The notes below the pieces were generated by a model. That model did not search any database, was not told the origin of the DNA, and saw only the letters and a list, made by a program, of their open reading frames with translations. The position numbers and the translations under genes were made by a program. A stretch of 7,002 nucleotides of DNA from a virus (taxonomy: Duplodnaviria; Heunggongvirae; Uroviricota; Caudoviricetes), in the IMG/VR virus record IMGVR_UViG_2778261498_000010, positions 1 through 7,002 of that record. One strand, 5' to 3'. Below, one piece after another: positions 712 to 7,002 of this stretch (position 1 is the stretch's first letter; each line of letters starts with the position of its first letter).

Positions 712-1323
712 ATGAAGATTTTTTTGGAGAATCTTTATCATTCTGATTGCTATTTCCTGCCGATAAGAGATAACCAGCAAGACCTTGTCGGCGTTGAGTT
801 AATTACCCATTTCTCCAGTGAAGATGGTACGGTTCGTATACCGACGAGTCGGGTTATAGCGCAACTTACCGAGGAGCAACATTGGCAATTATTTTCTGAG
901 CAGTTGGAATTGCTAAAATCATGCCAACACTTTTTTATTCAACATAAACTCTTTGCCTGGCTTAATTTAACCCCGCAAGTGGCTACTTTATTATTAGACA
1001 GGGATAATTACGCGGGCGAACTATTAAAATATCCGTTTATTGAACTGTTGATTAATGAGAATTACCCGCATCTCGATGAAGGAAAAGATAATCGCGATCT
1101 TTTTTCCTTATCGCAAATGTATCCCCTTGTGTTAGGTAATTTGGGCGCAGGCAATAGCACAATGAAAGCGGTTTTTGATGGTCTTTTCACCCGCGTCATG
1201 CTGGATAAAAGTTTTATTCAGCAACAAATCACGCATCGCTCCTTCGAACCGTTTATTCGTGCGATCCAGGCGCAAATTTCCCCATGTTGCAATTGCATCA
1301 TCGCGGGGGGCATTGATATGTAA
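712..1323 (+). CDS. ydiV: EAL-like (degenerate) anti-FlhD4C2 factor YdiV; the ORF closes at 203 codons, apparently short at the C-terminus
   Basis: ORF with RBS-like GAGGGA 8 nt upstream of the ATG. Translation recognised as YdiV (degenerate EAL domain, IIAGGID in place of the usual AEGVET-type block). From memory the E. coli protein is ~237 aa, so ~34 C-terminal residues including the expected QG-containing end motif are missing from this frame. Synteny nlpC then ydiV is as in E. coli. Confidence 0.8.
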   Translation: MKIFLENLYHSDCYFLPIRDNQQDLVGVELITHFSSEDGTVRIPTSRVIAQLTEEQHWQLFSEQLELLKSCQHFFIQHKLFAWLNLTPQVATLLLDRDNYAGELLKYPFIELLINENYPHLDEGKDNRDLFSLSQMYPLVLGNLGAGNSTMKAVFDGLFTRVMLDKSFIQQQITHRSFEPFIRAIQAQISPCCNCIIAGGIDM

Positions 1324-1354
1324 CTTCGCGTTTTTTTCTGGGCTAATTGGCGCG

Positions 1355-1396
1355 CAATTCTGGGCGGAGAGAGCGCAACCAAAAAGCCCAGAATTG
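1355..1396. repeat. 11-bp perfect inverted repeat (caattctgggc / gcccagaattg) with 20-nt spacer; a third copy of the 8-mer ttctgggc lies at 1336-1343
   Basis: Seen directly. It sits in the interval between the end of the ydiV reading frame and the invertase stub. Confidence 0.5.
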
Positions 1397-1433
1397 GACG
1401 CTAAATTATTAGTCTCATACTGATGATTTACCC

Positions 1434-1529
1434 TCAAAAAATCAGCTCATATCCTGCACAGTTCAACGCATTGCGTTGTAAATCGGTGTTCTGGTCATTT
1501 GTTGATGCGCGTACATAGCCTATAAACAT
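1434..1529 (-). pseudogene. Serine invertase (Pin/Gin/Hin/Cin family) N-terminal stub: 31 codons then TGA
   Basis: Minus-strand translation from the ATG at 1529: MFIGYVRASTNDQNTDLQRNALNCAGYELIF*. It matches the extreme N-terminus of Din-family invertases, including the catalytic Ser context GYVRxSTxDQ. No downstream frame continues the family sequence. The ORF is below the six-frame track threshold, so it was found by hand. Confidence 0.8.
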
Positions 1530-1583: not shown

Positions 1584-1609
1584 TTTTCATAAACGTTGGT
1601 TTGGGAGAA
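1584..1609. repeat. Right inversion crossover site (hix/gix-like, 26 bp)
   Basis: Read on the minus strand: TTCTCCCAAACC-AA-CGTTTATGAAAA. It matches the left site in 22 of 26 positions; the inner half-site and AA core are identical. It lies immediately upstream of the invertase stub start, as gixR lies before gin in Mu. Confidence 0.7.
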
Positions 1610-2095
1610 GGCTCTGCATTACCTGTTGGTGTCCCTGTTCCGTGGCCTTCAGCCACTCCGCCAACAGGCTGGCTGAAATGCAATGGTGCAGCTTTTTCTG
1701 CTGAAGAATACCCGGAACTGGCAAAAGTTTACCCGACAAATAAATTGCCTGATTTACGTGGTGAGTTTATTCGTGGCTGGGATGACGGGCGGGGGATTGA
1801 TACAGGTCGCTCTATTTTAAGTATTCAGGGGTATGCAACGGAGGATCATGCTCATGGATTACCGTCAAGATCCACGATTGTGACTGATGCAACGATTAAT
1901 TTCTATTTTGATGAAAGCTGGGTAAATAGTGGCACTGACATTATCAAAAGAGGAAACACAAACGATGCCGGATTACCAGCACCGGATTATGGAACCTTTA
2001 AAACATATAAACAATCAGTGGCTGGTTTAGGTGCCGCAGCCTCAGAAACGCGTCCGCGTAATATTGCATTTAACTATATCGTGAGGGCAGCCTGA
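1598..2095 (+). CDS. Alternative side tail fibre C-terminal cassette (S'v-type, tail-collar-like receptor-binding domain); promoterless, in the OFF orientation
   Basis: Coding begins in frame at the inner half of the right crossover site (NVGLGE). Tail-collar-like motif GWLKCNGAAF..YPEL...LPDLRGEFIRGWDDGRG. The six-frame track extends the ORF to 1556 (ATGATG), but those codons lie outside the invertible segment in the invertase promoter region and are probably not a real start. Stop overlaps the Tfa' start (TGATG). Confidence 0.75.
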   Translation, partial: GLGEGSALPVGVPVPWPSATPPTGWLKCNGAAFSAEEYPELAKVYPTNKLPDLRGEFIRGWDDGRGIDTGRSILSIQGYATEDHAHGLPSRSTIVTDATINFYFDESWVNSGTDIIKRGNTNDAGLPAPDYGTFKTYKQSVAGLGAAASETRPRNIAFNYIVRAA

Positions 2096-2697
2096 TGCAT
2101 AAAGCAATATTAAATAGTGAGCTCATTGCAACAAAGGCAGGGGATGTTACCGTTTATAACTATGATGGTGAAACACGGGAATATATTTCCACTTCAAATG
2201 AATATCTTGCCGTTGGTGTCGGCATTCCGGCATGTTCCTGTTTAGATGCCCCTGGCACACATAAGGCTGGTTATGCAATCTGCCGTTCTGCAGATTTTAA
2301 CTCATGGGAATATGTGCCAGACCATCGCGGTGAAACGGTCTATAGCACCAAAACAGGAGAATCAAAAGAAATCACCGCTCCGGGTGATTACCCTGAAAAT
2401 ACAACCACTATCGCCCCATTAACGCCATACGATAAATGGGATGGTGAGAAATGGGTGACCGATACTGAGGCACAGCATAGCGCCGCAGTAGATGCAGCAG
2501 AAGCACAGCGCCAGTCGCTGATTGATACTGCAATGGCTTCCATCAGTCTGATTCAACTGAAATTGCAGGCCGGACGTAAACTGACGCAGGCAGAAACAAC
2601 CCGGCTTAACGCTGTGCTGGATTACATTGACGCGGTGACGGCAACAGATACCAGCACCGCGCCGGATGTCATCTGGCCTGAACTGCCGGAGGCGTAG
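2095..2697 (+). CDS. Tail fibre assembly protein Tfa' (chaperone for the alternative cassette)
   Basis: 200-codon ORF whose start overlaps the cassette stop. C-terminus DTSTAPDVIWPELPEA is typical of the phage tail-fibre assembly (Tfa/U) family. Resembles e14 TfaE from memory. Confidence 0.85.
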   Translation: MHKAILNSELIATKAGDVTVYNYDGETREYISTSNEYLAVGVGIPACSCLDAPGTHKAGYAICRSADFNSWEYVPDHRGETVYSTKTGESKEITAPGDYPENTTTIAPLTPYDKWDGEKWVTDTEAQHSAAVDAAEAQRQSLIDTAMASISLIQLKLQAGRKLTQAETTRLNAVLDYIDAVTATDTSTAPDVIWPELPEA

Positions 2698-3109
2698 GCC
2701 ATTCAATATCTGGCGCACCGGAAGTATCGACCAGTTCCAGTGCGTCCAGGTAATCCAGCCACAAATTATATTGCGCCAGTTCGTCACCTTTCAGACGACC
2801 AATAGCCGCTTTACCAGGCCATTGTTTACTGTTCATATAATCGTTGGCCTGATTAATCAATTGCTGCTTCTCCAATTCGGCTGCAGCAATTTGTTCCTCA
2901 TGTGTTGGTGGTGGAATTTCAGACCATGCAGGAAAACCATTTTCTCCAGCGATACGGATTTTTCCTTTCGGCGGTAATCCGGAAAACTCAATATACACTT
3001 GCTCATCAACTTCAACAGCATCATCTGGCCATGAGTCAGCTTGAGTGTAATCCTCTTTCATCTCCAGCGGATAGAAAGAGTTTGTAGTCGCGGAATATAT
3101 GTAATTCAT
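2669..3109 (-). CDS. Tail fibre assembly protein Tfa (chaperone for the currently expressed fibre)
   Basis: 146-codon ORF with RBS GGAG 8 nt upstream of the ATG at 3109. N-terminus MNYIYSATTNSFYP and C-terminus DTSGAPDIEWPTPP are Tfa-family hallmarks. Its 3' end overlaps the convergent Tfa' by 29 bp. Confidence 0.85.
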   Translation of the reverse strand: MNYIYSATTNSFYPLEMKEDYTQADSWPDDAVEVDEQVYIEFSGLPPKGKIRIAGENGFPAWSEIPPPTHEEQIAAAELEKQQLINQANDYMNSKQWPGKAAIGRLKGDELAQYNLWLDYLDALELVDTSGAPDIEWPTPPAVQAR

Positions 3110-3130
3110 TTTTCACTCCATATAGCTAAA

Positions 3131-3775
3131 TTAACAGCCTAACGCTAAAAATGAAGCGCCGAGGCCAGGAGTACTGGCTCTGGATATAAATTTAACCGGG
3201 TCGGGACTAAAACCTGCACAGGCAATATAACCAACAGCCCCGCTATCTGGTGTGTAGTCTTGTGAGACCAAAACACGCAGACATCTGTTTGGAAATGCAA
3301 TCGGGAAATGGGTTACTACATCCTGTGCAATGCCTGGTGCGCCGATTGAGCCCCACTGAAGAATAAAACCTGATGGTAATTTTTGATATCCAGTACCTGA
3401 AACAGAAAGCGTGAAGCTACCCATATCAGGTATCTGATTCGCCCCTGTCCCTACATTCCTTTTAGCCGCTTCTCCCAAACCAAGGTTTTTGAGAGCCGTG
3501 TTCACCGTGCCATCCGATTTGATATCGCCAAACGGATTCTTGCGGCTTAACAGCAGCGCACGAAGCGCGGTAAGTAGCTGATCCGTTTTTTGGGGGTCAG
3601 GTTGAATATGTGCACTACCAAGAACATTAAGGAGTTCCTGCTGTAAATCACGGGTTGCCCCCTGCTGATTATTTAAATAATCAGCAGTTACGATGGTTCC
3701 TTCTATCCCCTGAGTGGGGTCACCATCATGAAACAATTGATCCGGTGTATTTATCGGGGGCATCAGATTTTGCAT
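3131..3775 (-). CDS. Side tail fibre protein (Stf): constant N-terminal ~98 residues plus currently fused variable C-terminal domain
   Basis: 214-codon ORF; the start ATG overlaps the upstream gp48 stop (TAATG). The left crossover site lies at codons ~94-102 (ALKNLGLGE). Size and position resemble e14 StfP. Followed by Tfa. Confidence 0.8.
3470..3495. repeat. Left inversion crossover site (hix/gix-like, 26 bp) inside the fibre gene
   Basis: Plus strand TTCTCCCAAACC-AA-GGTTTTTGAGAG. From memory this closely resembles hixL (TTCTTGAAAACCAAGGTTTTTGATAA) and gix. It is in inverted orientation relative to the site at 1584-1609. Confidence 0.7.
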
Positions 3776-4347
3776 TACTGCTCCTCCTTATATGTGAAAT
3801 GGCAATAAGTAAAAGCGGGTTTAAGGTCTTTAAATGTTTCTTCCAGTACAGGGGCACCAAAGGAAAGTAACGGTTCCCCGGCTGCAGATACTCCGGTTCT
3901 GAATCTGTAAGCTGGCGTTTTGCTTCCTGTGACATTAACCTGCCAAATCCATCGGGCATCTGTTATATAGAGACGATCACCACATCGGTTTACCCCCGTT
4001 CTGAATGGATGGAGTTCAGTAATTGTTATGGTGTACCCGAGGCTGACTGCAAGTTGTTTAAAATAAGGGATAGATAACCCACCAGTTGCAGCCATCTTTA
4101 TAAGAATATTTTCTCGGCGTTCCTGCTGTGTGGCACCATCGCGGGGTATTACTCCATACACTCGTTCCCAGTCAGACAGCGTCATGGATGCGTAAAATGG
4201 TGTGACAGATGCGAGCACTCGTGCAGCTGACGCTTTTACTTCATCCATAATGGCTGCTTCTGCGTTCAGTTCTGCTGAAATATATTTCCCGTTCGGGTCA
4301 TAGCTGACCGGTGGTAACATGGCACGAAATAAATCAACCGTATTCAT
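3775..4347 (-). CDS. gp48/YmfQ-like tail protein (DUF2313-type), upstream partner of the tail fibre
   Basis: 190-codon ORF between the baseplate J-like gene and the fibre gene, the position occupied by ymfQ in e14 and gp48 in Mu. GGAG-containing RBS. Family assignment from memory of YmfQ-like proteins. Confidence 0.7.
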
Positions 4348-4350
4348 GTA

Positions 4351-5430
4351 TTAACTCTCCCGGGGAAATGGCTGGATATCAATACTCCCCGGACGCAGCC
4401 ACTCCCATGTGGATTCATTGACAACTGCTTTTACATTATCTGACGGCATAATAATCCGCCGATCACTGACGCCAGAAATTAATGAAATCTGAGTTTCCAG
4501 TTGTGAAATAATTAATTCCTGCCCCGGTTCCAGTCGGTTCATAAAATCCGTGATAACTTCAGTTATCTGTGGTTTTATCTGTTCAACAGTAAGGCCACTG
4601 GTTTTTATTCTGACAACAAAATCAACGTTTTTTTTCGTTGGTGCCAGTACCATTGTATCCTTCGCCGTTACCGGGCGGACATCATTGATATGGGCCATCA
4701 CCGCGTTAATCAGCTCCTGTGACGGTAAATCATTTGCAGAAGTGATAACCACATCAACCGTACCGGGGCCACGACGTAACGGCTCCACGTATGCAGAGGT
4801 AACACCGTCAACTTCCAGCGCCCAGCGTTTGTAATCATATTTATTACCGCCAGCGGGCGGCCTGCGCAGAATATCCAGATAACGCGCCAGCAGGCCGGCG
4901 TCACTTTCCCTGTCCGTTCCGCCGGTCAGGGATTTAATCGTCACCGTGCTGTTGATGCCTTCCGGCGGGCTGACCAGCGTTGCCGTCTGCGTCGTGGATG
5001 CATTCGTCTGTGCACCCGTGGCGGTGCTTTTTACCGTCACCTCTGCGCTGCCTTCATCACCGATGGTGCAGTCTGCTGTGGTGGCCACGCTGACACCTTC
5101 ACCACGAATTTCCGCACCGGCTGGCAGCGTCTTACCGGGTGCGCCGGTAATCACTACCGGACCGGATGAGGCCGTTGCTTTTTTACGAAAAACATTGCGC
5201 GTACGACAGTGCAGCTCCAGATATTCAGGGTCAGCCGTGTCAGGAAACACCTGACGGAGGATCCATCCCTGATGCATATAAAGTCCGTCCGCCACGCCGG
5301 ATACGGCATTTGCACGAATGCGGTAATCGCTGTCAGCGCTGGTGTCGATGGTTTCTCCCGGCAGGGCGTTAGCGATATCACGTAGCTGGCGTTCTGTGTT
5401 TTCAGCAACGCCCGGAACAGGAAACGGCAT
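4351..5430 (-). CDS. Baseplate J-like protein (Mu gp47 / P2 gpJ family)
   Basis: 359-codon ORF with size, position and sequence character typical of baseplate J-like wedge proteins. Start overlaps the upstream gp46 stop (TAATG). Confidence 0.8.
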   Translation of the reverse strand: MPFPVPGVAENTERQLRDIANALPGETIDTSADSDYRIRANAVSGVADGLYMHQGWILRQVFPDTADPEYLELHCRTRNVFRKKATASSGPVVITGAPGKTLPAGAEIRGEGVSVATTADCTIGDEGSAEVTVKSTATGAQTNASTTQTATLVSPPEGINSTVTIKSLTGGTDRESDAGLLARYLDILRRPPAGGNKYDYKRWALEVDGVTSAYVEPLRRGPGTVDVVITSANDLPSQELINAVMAHINDVRPVTAKDTMVLAPTKKNVDFVVRIKTSGLTVEQIKPQITEVITDFMNRLEPGQELIISQLETQISLISGVSDRRIIMPSDNVKAVVNESTWEWLRPGSIDIQPFPRES

Positions 5431-5780
5431 TACATAATCCTCACAGGGTGTTCAAATGTCTGCGGTGTGCCCGCGTTATCCGTGACGGTGATTAACAGCA
5501 ACAGCCAGCCGCGCTGACCCGGTTTCGTGTCAACAGTAATGGATTTTGCCCGCCCGTCATTGAGCAGGGGCTGAAGTGCCTGGCTGGCATACTGCGCCGC
5601 CAGCCAGTGAACACGGGAAACGTCTTTTTCCCGCTTCAGCTCGTGCAGGCGTGACCCCAGCAACGCATCCGCCCAGTAACTGCCAAGCGGTGTCGCCAGT
5701 CGCAGATAAACCGCGTTATGGAGTGTGTAAATCCGGCGGCGTTCGTAGTCGCCGGTTGCAGGTGAAATCGTCTGGTCCAT
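5430..5780 (-). CDS. Mu gp46-like small baseplate protein
   Basis: 116-codon ORF between the V/gp45-like and J/gp47-like genes, the conserved position and size for gp46-family proteins. Confidence 0.65.
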   Translation of the reverse strand: MDQTISPATGDYERRRIYTLHNAVYLRLATPLGSYWADALLGSRLHELKREKDVSRVHWLAAQYASQALQPLLNDGRAKSITVDTKPGQRGWLLLLITVTDNAGTPQTFEHPVRIM

Positions 5781-5833: not shown

Positions 5834-6487
5834 TTAATTAACCGGCGTGTCAGACATGCCGTGTGGGGTCGGGTGTTTGTGCGTTCCGATTTTAACGCCA
5901 TTAATGGTGACGTCAACGGAGGTAATCACACCGCTTGTGTGGTTGATGTTGCCTTCAAAGGTGGCGGCGTATTCATTACCTCCACGGATGGCCATGCCAC
6001 CGTTGCCGGTGATTTTGCCTTCCACCGTCAGCCTGTTGCTGGCTGTCAGTAACGGTGTCGTGAATGCGGCGCTTTCCTCTGCCTCAACCTCATAGCGTTT
6101 GCATTTCACGCGATAAACATCACATTCATGCTCAATAACCCGCCCGCGCTTCAGTACGATTTTCGCGCCTTCATCGGTATACAGGGCCACCTCGCCGGGT
6201 TTCAGTTCCGTCAGGCGATATGCGCCGTGCTCGGTGGCCACGACGACGGTATGGGAGGTATTACCGTTCAGCGGAACAGCAATACCCATTGAACCGGGCG
6301 GCGGGGATGTGGTGAGGCCGTAATGCTGAAAATACTCCGCACCGTCCAGCTGTTCGCCTGCCAGCCCGTTCAGCTGGAGAAGCTGTACTTTGGTCGAACT
6401 GTCCACCGTACCGGTCACCACCCTGAATGCCTGGCGAACGGCGACCAGTGCCTGCTGTATGCGCTGATTAACCTTGTCCCACATCAT
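5834..6487 (-). CDS. Baseplate assembly protein V / Mu gp45-like (baseplate spike)
   Basis: 217-codon ORF. C-terminal ...GVKIGTHKHPTPHGMSDTPVN and central beta-rich region are typical of the gpV/gp45 spike family. Start ATGATG overlaps the gp44-like stop. Confidence 0.75.
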   Translation of the reverse strand: MMWDKVNQRIQQALVAVRQAFRVVTGTVDSSTKVQLLQLNGLAGEQLDGAEYFQHYGLTTSPPPGSMGIAVPLNGNTSHTVVVATEHGAYRLTELKPGEVALYTDEGAKIVLKRGRVIEHECDVYRVKCKRYEVEAEESAAFTTPLLTASNRLTVEGKITGNGGMAIRGGNEYAATFEGNINHTSGVITSVDVTINGVKIGTHKHPTPHGMSDTPVN

Positions 6488-7002
6488 TTCTCCCAGACCT
6501 TAACAATGGCGACCTCTTTTTTCTTTTTGCCCCTGCGGTGATGGCGTTTCTTCTCGCGCGGGAAGGCGTCAGGTATCCACACGCCGTCCTCCTTAAAGCG
6601 AAGCCGGGTTGTCTGCCCGTTCCGGCCTCCGCTGAACTCACGCCCCATCAGGAAAAAGATGGCATCAATGCCGTGGAGTTCGCTGACAATCCGCACCCGC
6701 TGACCGGGCTGCCACAGAACACCATCTGCCGTGCGATGACCTGCAACCAGTGCGACGATATCCAGCCCCGACAGGCGGGCATCACTCATCATTTTTTTTG
6801 CGCGCCAGCTCACCTGCTCCAGATTGCTGGTGTCGCCCTGGGTGATAATCTGCGGGCGGTAATAATCCACGGTGGGGTCGGTGGCCACGGCTTTCATGTT
6901 ATGAATGCCTGTCTGACCACTGTCCGTATTACCGCTGTCCTGCCCGGATAATGTGCGCACGCTGCCGTCCTCGTTCCAGATATCCAGCGGCACCACGGCC
7001 AC
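6484..7002 (-). CDS. gp44/gpD-like baseplate hub protein, C-terminal part only (5' end beyond the window)
   Basis: Open frame running to the window edge with no start inside the window. Its position immediately upstream of the V/gp45-like gene matches the Mu gp44 / P2 gpD slot. Assignment rests mainly on gene order. Confidence 0.55.
   Translation of the reverse strand: MAVVPLDIWNEDGSVRTLSGQDSGNTDSGQTGIHNMKAVATDPTVDYYRPQIITQGDTSNLEQVSWRAKKMMSDARLSGLDIVALVAGHRTADGVLWQPGQRVRIVSELHGIDAIFFLMGREFSGGRNGQTTRLRFKEDGVWIPDAFPREKKRHHRRGKKKKEVAIVKVWEK

Follow-up and report, generated by a model that had tools for sequence, protein, structure and literature searches.

Among the described transposable phages, Mu has an arrangement of end sites, L1-L3 and R1-R3, that resembles the motif layout of the prophage family treated in this study. 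Target duplications of 5 bp are generated by Mu and of 6 bp by phage B3 (PMC8705779). The host gene concerned here, ydiV, encodes an anti-FlhD4C2 factor, and crystal structures of YdiV and of YdiV-FlhD revealed a TIM-like barrel in modified form, made up of 10 helices and 8 strands, an interface with FlhD formed by α6-α8 (residues 155-192, with α8 comprising residues 176-192), and FlhD contacts by F155, F168, H175, E179, F181, R183 and Q188 (PMC3510510). Deletion of ydiV de-represses flagellar genes; in UPEC, it leads to more invasion, while intracellular survival fails via the YdiV-SlyD-Fur axis (PMC7515728).

In this study, a stretch of 7,002 nucleotides (in the following: the window) was analyzed, which is the terminal part of contig NLVE01000066.1 in the draft assembly GCA_002510335.1. 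The window opens with the host gene nlpC (1-465), followed on the plus strand by ydiV (712-1323) with an open reading frame of 203 amino acids ending in ...IIAGGIDM. The initial annotation had described a stop at codon 203 and, accordingly, an abnormal 3' end of ydiV. Both were confirmed, since the reference protein comprises 237 amino acids (IAI39 annotation; PDB 4ES4 and 3TLQ). Residues 1-202 are 100% identical to YdiV of E. coli IAI39 and are followed by a methionine and the stop, whereas the reference continues after residue 202 with TPEIMAQ..., i.e. TPEIMAQITPFDFHALQGCLWPAVPVNQITTLVQR. On the DNA level, positions 1-1318 align with nlpC-ydiV of IAI39 with 99.4% identity and 0 gaps, and 1318 is exactly the last base that can be aligned. 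When positions 1319-1700 were compared with the 3' end of the reference ydiV and the ydiV-selO spacer by sensitive blastn, nothing beyond random words of 7-9 nt was found.

The reading frame over the junction explains the observed end of the protein. The host contributes ...GGC ATT GAT A and the DNA from 1319 onwards TG TAA, so that codon 203 (ATG) consists of the host base A1318 and TG (1319-1320), and the stop codon TAA (1321-1323) lies entirely in foreign sequence; GAT ATG TAA is thus read as Asp202, Met and stop. In the frame of ydiV, the incoming end is thus read as TG-TAA, and translation yields YdiV(1-202) plus one methionine. With high confidence, we conclude that a Mu-like transposable prophage sits in ydiV between positions 1318 and 1319, directly after the first base of codon 203, and that the window contains the right end of this prophage. 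One of the two readings proposed initially, replacement of host DNA from about position 1318 by phage-end DNA, was therefore right to the base, with the host sequence ending at 1318 and a terminal TG starting at 1319.

The other reading proposed initially, a frameshift in which a slip of plus or minus one base in one of two homopolymers moves ydiV into the +2 frame ending at 1421-1423, did not hold. The coordinates on which it was built are correct: a G6 run is located at 1305-1310, a T7 run at 1331-1337, and the +2 frame stays open to the TGA at 1421-1423 (open reading frame 1175-1423). In favor of a frameshift, there is only the coincidence that this frame remains open for 35 codons, which equals the number of missing residues. 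However, colinearity with the reference ydiV is absent after 1318, with no pattern of an indel of one base in either direction, and the +2 peptide CNFAFFSGLIGAQFW... (in full CNFAFFSGLIGAQFWAERAQPKSPELDAKLLVSY) is unrelated to the C-terminus of YdiV, TPEIMAQITPFDFHALQG... Neither homopolymer is a lesion. The G6 run on the plus strand is native ydiV sequence encoding A-G-G and is the same in the intact gene of IAI39, while the T7 run is conserved phage-end sequence and, like all DNA beyond 1319, is 98-99% identical to prophage ends within other genes. The probability of a frameshift is thus practically nil, and a frameshift due to a homopolymer or to sequencing is ruled out as origin of the truncation. 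The ydiV allele is an ordinary insertion mutation of the classical Mu type in a new target gene.

The right end of the prophage (attR-type; 1319-1418) starts with the terminal 5'-TG at 1319-1320 and reads 5'-TGTAACTTCGCGTTTTTTTCTGGGC, with the longer stretch being TGTAACTTCGCGTTTTTTTCTGGGCTAATTGG... Within this end, the motif TTCTGGGC is present in three copies, compared to 0.21 copies expected, namely at 1336-1343 and 1358-1365 on the plus strand and at 1386-1393 on the minus strand. We read these copies as putative transposase-binding sites R1-R3. The T7 run adjoins R1 and overlaps its first two bases; it is kept in most relatives, with T6 in strain 210221272 and T5 in strain OkiPb01676. The left and right termini of the relatives both start with 5'-TG, and in both, nt 18-25 counted from the tip are occupied by TTCTGGGC. 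The right end has two further copies, one at nt 40 and one in inverted orientation at nt 68, and the left end has further copies at nt 92 and 143. The inverted repeats 1347-1365/1386-1404 (and 1321-1350/1379-1408) correspond to the second and third TTCTGGGC motifs, which face in opposite directions; these repeats inside the phage end are neither a terminator nor an RNA hairpin. For annotation purposes, positions 1319-1436 should be treated as the end of a transposable phage and not as coding sequence.

The same terminus, beginning with the same T, was found beside unrelated host DNA in other strains. The host contexts are a ynfE-like molybdopterin oxidoreductase gene in strain 47-1826, an IS4 transposase gene in strain 210221272, eutC in strain E2348/69, the melR-melA spacer in strain tcmA_3, the yeiP-yeiQ spacer in strain 20KM0223N and mhpT in strain CFS3292; a gene for an ABC protein is a further site. 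TG is located at the exact boundary in the window (1319-1320) and at seven other loci with differing flanks. The element therefore occurs at many unrelated chromosomal sites, ydiV among them, without specificity for an attB. In total, the terminal 100 bp were detected in 19 of 5,426 complete E. coli genomes, with one copy each and with matches starting at nt 1 or 2 of the query. No isolated phage in the phage collection carries these 100 bp, since matches there begin only at the gin stump described below, and the right-end 25-mer gave 0 matches among species-representative genomes.

These data also bear on the alternative that a tyrosine or serine integrase inserted the prophage site-specifically, using ydiV as attB, a route suggested by the many E. 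coli prophages that enter the 3' ends of genes. Such a route would require recurrent occupancy of ydiV, which was found in 0 of the 5,426 complete genomes, whereas the same end was found at at least six unrelated sites. Moreover, the 3' end of ydiV is not regenerated, unlike what is usual for integrative phages, and the full-length relatives carry Mu-type transposase genes and no integrase. An integrase-mediated event is therefore extremely improbable, and transposition of a Mu-like element remains our reading of the locus.

While the ydiV part is matched in 5,422 of the 5,426 complete E. coli genomes, the junction between ydiV and the phage is present in none of them, and a large protein-position index contained the ydiV-insertion allele on two contigs only. 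The allele is thus rare and probably confined to this strain. An assembly chimera, in which a ydiV read was wrongly joined to a phage contig, might be considered for a contig that comes from a short-read draft and ends within the phage. However, the junction is present in two independently built assemblies, i.e. those of NCBI and Logan (SRR3987537), and the join lies exactly on the conserved TG terminus of all other insertions, which a random chimera would not be expected to hit. We regard a chimera as very improbable and the insertion into ydiV as genuine.

To characterize the complete element, five full-length relatives were considered. In each case, an element of about 35.7 kb splits the target in two. 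The gene order starts with a repressor (Pfam Phage_CI_repr, CI-repressor HTH) and a small HTH protein, continues with a transposase of 680 amino acids, a MuB-like AAA_22/TniB ATPase, Mor and lysis genes, and ends with Mu-type head and tail genes followed by the tail-fiber cassette adjoining the right end. The transposase of the E2348/69 prophage matches Mu-transpos_C (60.7 bits) and HTH_Tnp_Mu_1, the Mu DNA-binding domain (42.4 bits), both above the Pfam cut-off. The closest transposase of a sequenced phage is 49% identical, and the 25 best transposase matches did not include bacteriophage Mu. The window itself contributes, on the minus strand, genes for a gp48-like baseplate protein (3775-4347; Pfam Phage_Mu_Gp48), a baseplate J/gp47-like protein (4351-5430; Pfam Baseplate_J), a gp46-like baseplate protein (5430-5780; Pfam GP46), a gp45-like baseplate protein (5834-6487; Pfam Phage_Mu_Gp45) and a baseplate protein at the gp44 position (6484-7002), which is cut by the contig end. 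These baseplate genes show 95-96% identity to those of the Mu-like prophages of E2348/69 and others. The prophage in the window is a member of a little-described family of Mu-like prophages of E. coli; literature searches for the Mu-like prophage of E2348/69 or for an allele of the type ydiV::Mu returned nothing relevant.

Target duplications of 4 bp (CACT, GAGA, TCAG, CAAA and GAAT) flank all five related insertions. The duplication CACT in eutC (6932-6935 and 42672-42675 of the E2348/69 locus extract) was checked against the intact eutC gene. Duplications of 5 bp or 6 bp with shifted element boundaries were also tried but could not be reconciled with any of the five insertions, for which 4 bp with TG/CA ends is the sole consistent reading. 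As all five relatives show 4-bp duplications, GATA (1315-1318), with which the host DNA in the window ends, is predicted to be one copy of the target-site duplication, with the other copy at the left junction of this strain. The left end of the phage would read TGTGGGGTAGTG[A/T]TCAATTCTGGGCGG, and the left junction in this strain would read ...CTACCCCACA-(GATA)-CGCCAGAAATAATGGC. For a simple insertion, a left junction of the form ...CCGCCCAGAATTGA[T/A]CACTACCCCACA-GATA-CGCCAGAAATAATGGCACAG followed by selO is expected. A search for the predicted left junction as CTACCCCACA-N0-3-GATACGCCAGAAAT gave 0 matches among species-representative genomes.

The mechanism that we propose for this locus is DDE transposition, for which the MuA-type transposase and the MuB-type ATPase would be encoded at the far end of the prophage, outside the window. 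The remaining 35 codons of ydiV would be located about 36 kb away, past the left end of the phage, and would be preceded by the duplicated GATA. Reading inward from the junction, the window shows the terminal TG, the three putative transposase-binding repeats, a dead gin gene, the invertible tail-fiber cassette and the Mu-type baseplate genes.

A variant of this scheme is an insertion followed by a secondary rearrangement, in which the distal part of ydiV, perhaps together with selO (ydiU), is no longer located past the other phage end, having been deleted or moved either by intramolecular transposition of the Mu type or by recombination of two prophage copies related to each other. The Logan contig of SRR3987537 reaches 30 nt into the phage and ends at window position 1348, with the last 31-mer that still contains a host base. 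As Logan graphs are built with k=31 (PMC12424806), the stop at 1348 means that the next 31-mer, consisting of phage sequence only, is probably preceded by more than one sequence in the reads. The break hints at a second phage copy or at active transposition, and a phage end with more than one neighbor in the reads would suit a rearrangement, as would the break of the NCBI contig inside the baseplate genes at 7002 and the existence of a hybrid prophage with the same end elsewhere (OkiPb01676). On the other hand, all 19 complete genomes with the right end carry a single copy, and a simple insertion is by far the likeliest outcome because simple insertions, with both target halves and the 4-bp duplication, were found in all five full-length relatives examined. 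A secondary rearrangement is accordingly considered unlikely.

The hybrid in strain OkiPb01676 (NZ_AP042480.1, 483-580 of the locus extract) contains a copy of this right end that has degenerated, with the T5 run and a mutated third TTCTGGGC motif. This copy caps a non-Mu lambdoid prophage with integrase, excisionase and RecE/Bet. It appears to be a recombinant relic, which was probably formed via the shared invertible tail-fiber cassette. As this example places the end on a lambdoid prophage, the right end alone is no proof of a complete Mu-like prophage behind it.

Adjacent to the right end, a vestigial gin/pin-type DNA invertase gene is located on the minus strand (1419-1529). Its open reading frame (1529-1434) encodes MFIGYVRASTNDQNTDLQRNALNCAGYELIF followed by a stop codon, i.e. 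the first 31 Gin/Pin-type codons, and no functional serine invertase gene is present beside the segment. The stump matches the Resolvase N-terminal domain with E=4e-4, below the cut-off owing to the short fragment. DNA homology to the invertase genes of P2-like phages begins at nt 101 of the query, i.e. it stops at about position 1419. The prophage tip lies only about 110 bp beyond the gin stump, and this space holds no com/mom-like region; the prophage family has lost gin and whatever came after gin. In most RefSeq records, the stump appears as a pseudogene of 93 nt labeled 'hypothetical protein', which looks like an annotation artifact.

Further inward, inverted repeats at 1587-1610 and 3469-3492, with arms of 24 nt that are 92% complementary, enclose a G-segment-like invertible tail-fiber cassette (1587-3492). 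On the plus strand, it contains a silent alternative C-terminal part of the tail fiber with a Collar domain (1556-2095) and the corresponding assembly chaperone (2095-2697). In the expressed orientation, the minus strand encodes a tail-fiber assembly protein (2669-3109) and the tail fiber with a Gp53-like C-terminal domain (3131-3775). Between the prophages of E2348/69 and tcmA_3, the cassette is flipped (nt 273-2193 from the right terminus, 99.7% identity). Since both prophages carry the gin stump only, the inversion must be catalyzed in trans by the invertase of another element. At the tail-fiber position of the flipped cassette in tcmA_3, RefSeq lists 'integrase' pseudogene fragments (39936-40157 and 41597-42058 of the locus extract); these appear to be tail-fiber fragments, and the label looks like an annotation artifact.

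Combining these observations, we tentatively propose that the Mu-like prophages of the E2348/69 type, including that in the window, represent a distinct lineage, a proposal to which we give somewhat less than an even chance. Such a lineage would use a 4-bp stagger (5 in Mu, 6 in B3), would have lost its own invertase and would have its cassette flipped in trans by the invertases of co-resident prophages. In the strain studied here, the element may have more than one sequence context, either because a second copy exists or because transposition is still going on, so that the insertion into ydiV may be recent.

With respect to the function of YdiV, all FlhD-contact residues from F155 to Q188 are kept in the truncated protein, and the EAL-like barrel lacks its final 35 residues, all of them past the strand that follows α8. 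In the window protein, the match to the EAL profile covers positions 15-212 of 236, compared to 15-232 in the full-length protein. The match thus lacks profile positions 213-232, and its score drops from 34.2 bits to 21.8 bits, below the cut-off of 31.3. As C-terminal elements of the barrel are gone, a folding defect and hence a loss of function are likely from the sequence. The truncated YdiV would probably be unstable or inactive, making the allele a ydiV null or hypomorph; the product YdiV(1-202) plus methionine could also, less likely, still be active. Loss of YdiV would relieve the YdiV-dependent inhibition of FlhD4C2 and would disable the YdiV-SlyD-Fur iron response. The effect on motility control that the initial annotation had expected from an altered YdiV thus appears plausible.

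For genome annotation, ydiV in this strain is a genuine insertion pseudogene, and no frameshift 'repair' is warranted. The strain provides a natural isolate in which a regulator of motility and iron response was hit by a 'mutator' phage, and Mu-like prophages still make regulatory mutations in wild E. coli. The finding itself is explained and ordinary, and its interest lies mostly in what was observed in passing on the phage family and less in ydiV. If confirmed, the 4-bp duplications and a fiber cassette that is invertible in the absence of gin would be of interest to specialists on transposition and phages.

Compared with Mu and D108, the prophage family shares quasi-random insertion into host genes, 5'-TG...CA-3' termini, and three repeated, putatively transposase-binding motifs per end, with the terminal site equidistant from both tips and with left-end sites spread out and right-end sites clustered. 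The relatives also share the MuA-type transposase (Mu-transpos_C, Mu DNA-binding domain), the MuB-type ATPase and Mor, and the right end of the family is likewise located beside an invertible, G-like tail-fiber segment. In contrast to Mu and D108, the duplication comprises 4 bp in five of five relatives instead of the 5 bp of Mu (PMC8705779), gin is a wreck of 31 codons without a com/mom region, no record in the phage collection is related to the end sequences, and the repressor of the relatives matches Pfam Phage_CI_repr. The Pseudomonas transposable phages of the B3 type likewise have TG/CA ends, random insertion and a DDE transposase, but generate 6-bp duplications (PMC8705779); among the P. 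aeruginosa transposable phages listed, transposase identity was only about 31%. In comparison with engineered or natural ydiV null alleles (ΔydiV in Salmonella and UPEC), loss of the anti-FlhD4C2 activity and of the YdiV-SlyD-Fur control would be expected here as well (PMC3510510, PMC7515728), although the present allele still encodes 202 of 237 residues, among them the complete FlhD interface. The Mu-like prophage in eutC of EPEC E2348/69 (NC_011601.1, ~2,715,935-2,751,670) shows 99% identity over the right-end 100 bp and about 96% in the baseplate region, and has the same gin stump, an invertible cassette and a split host gene in common with the prophage in the window, while the two differ in their target (eutC versus ydiV) and in the content and orientation of the tail-fiber cassette.
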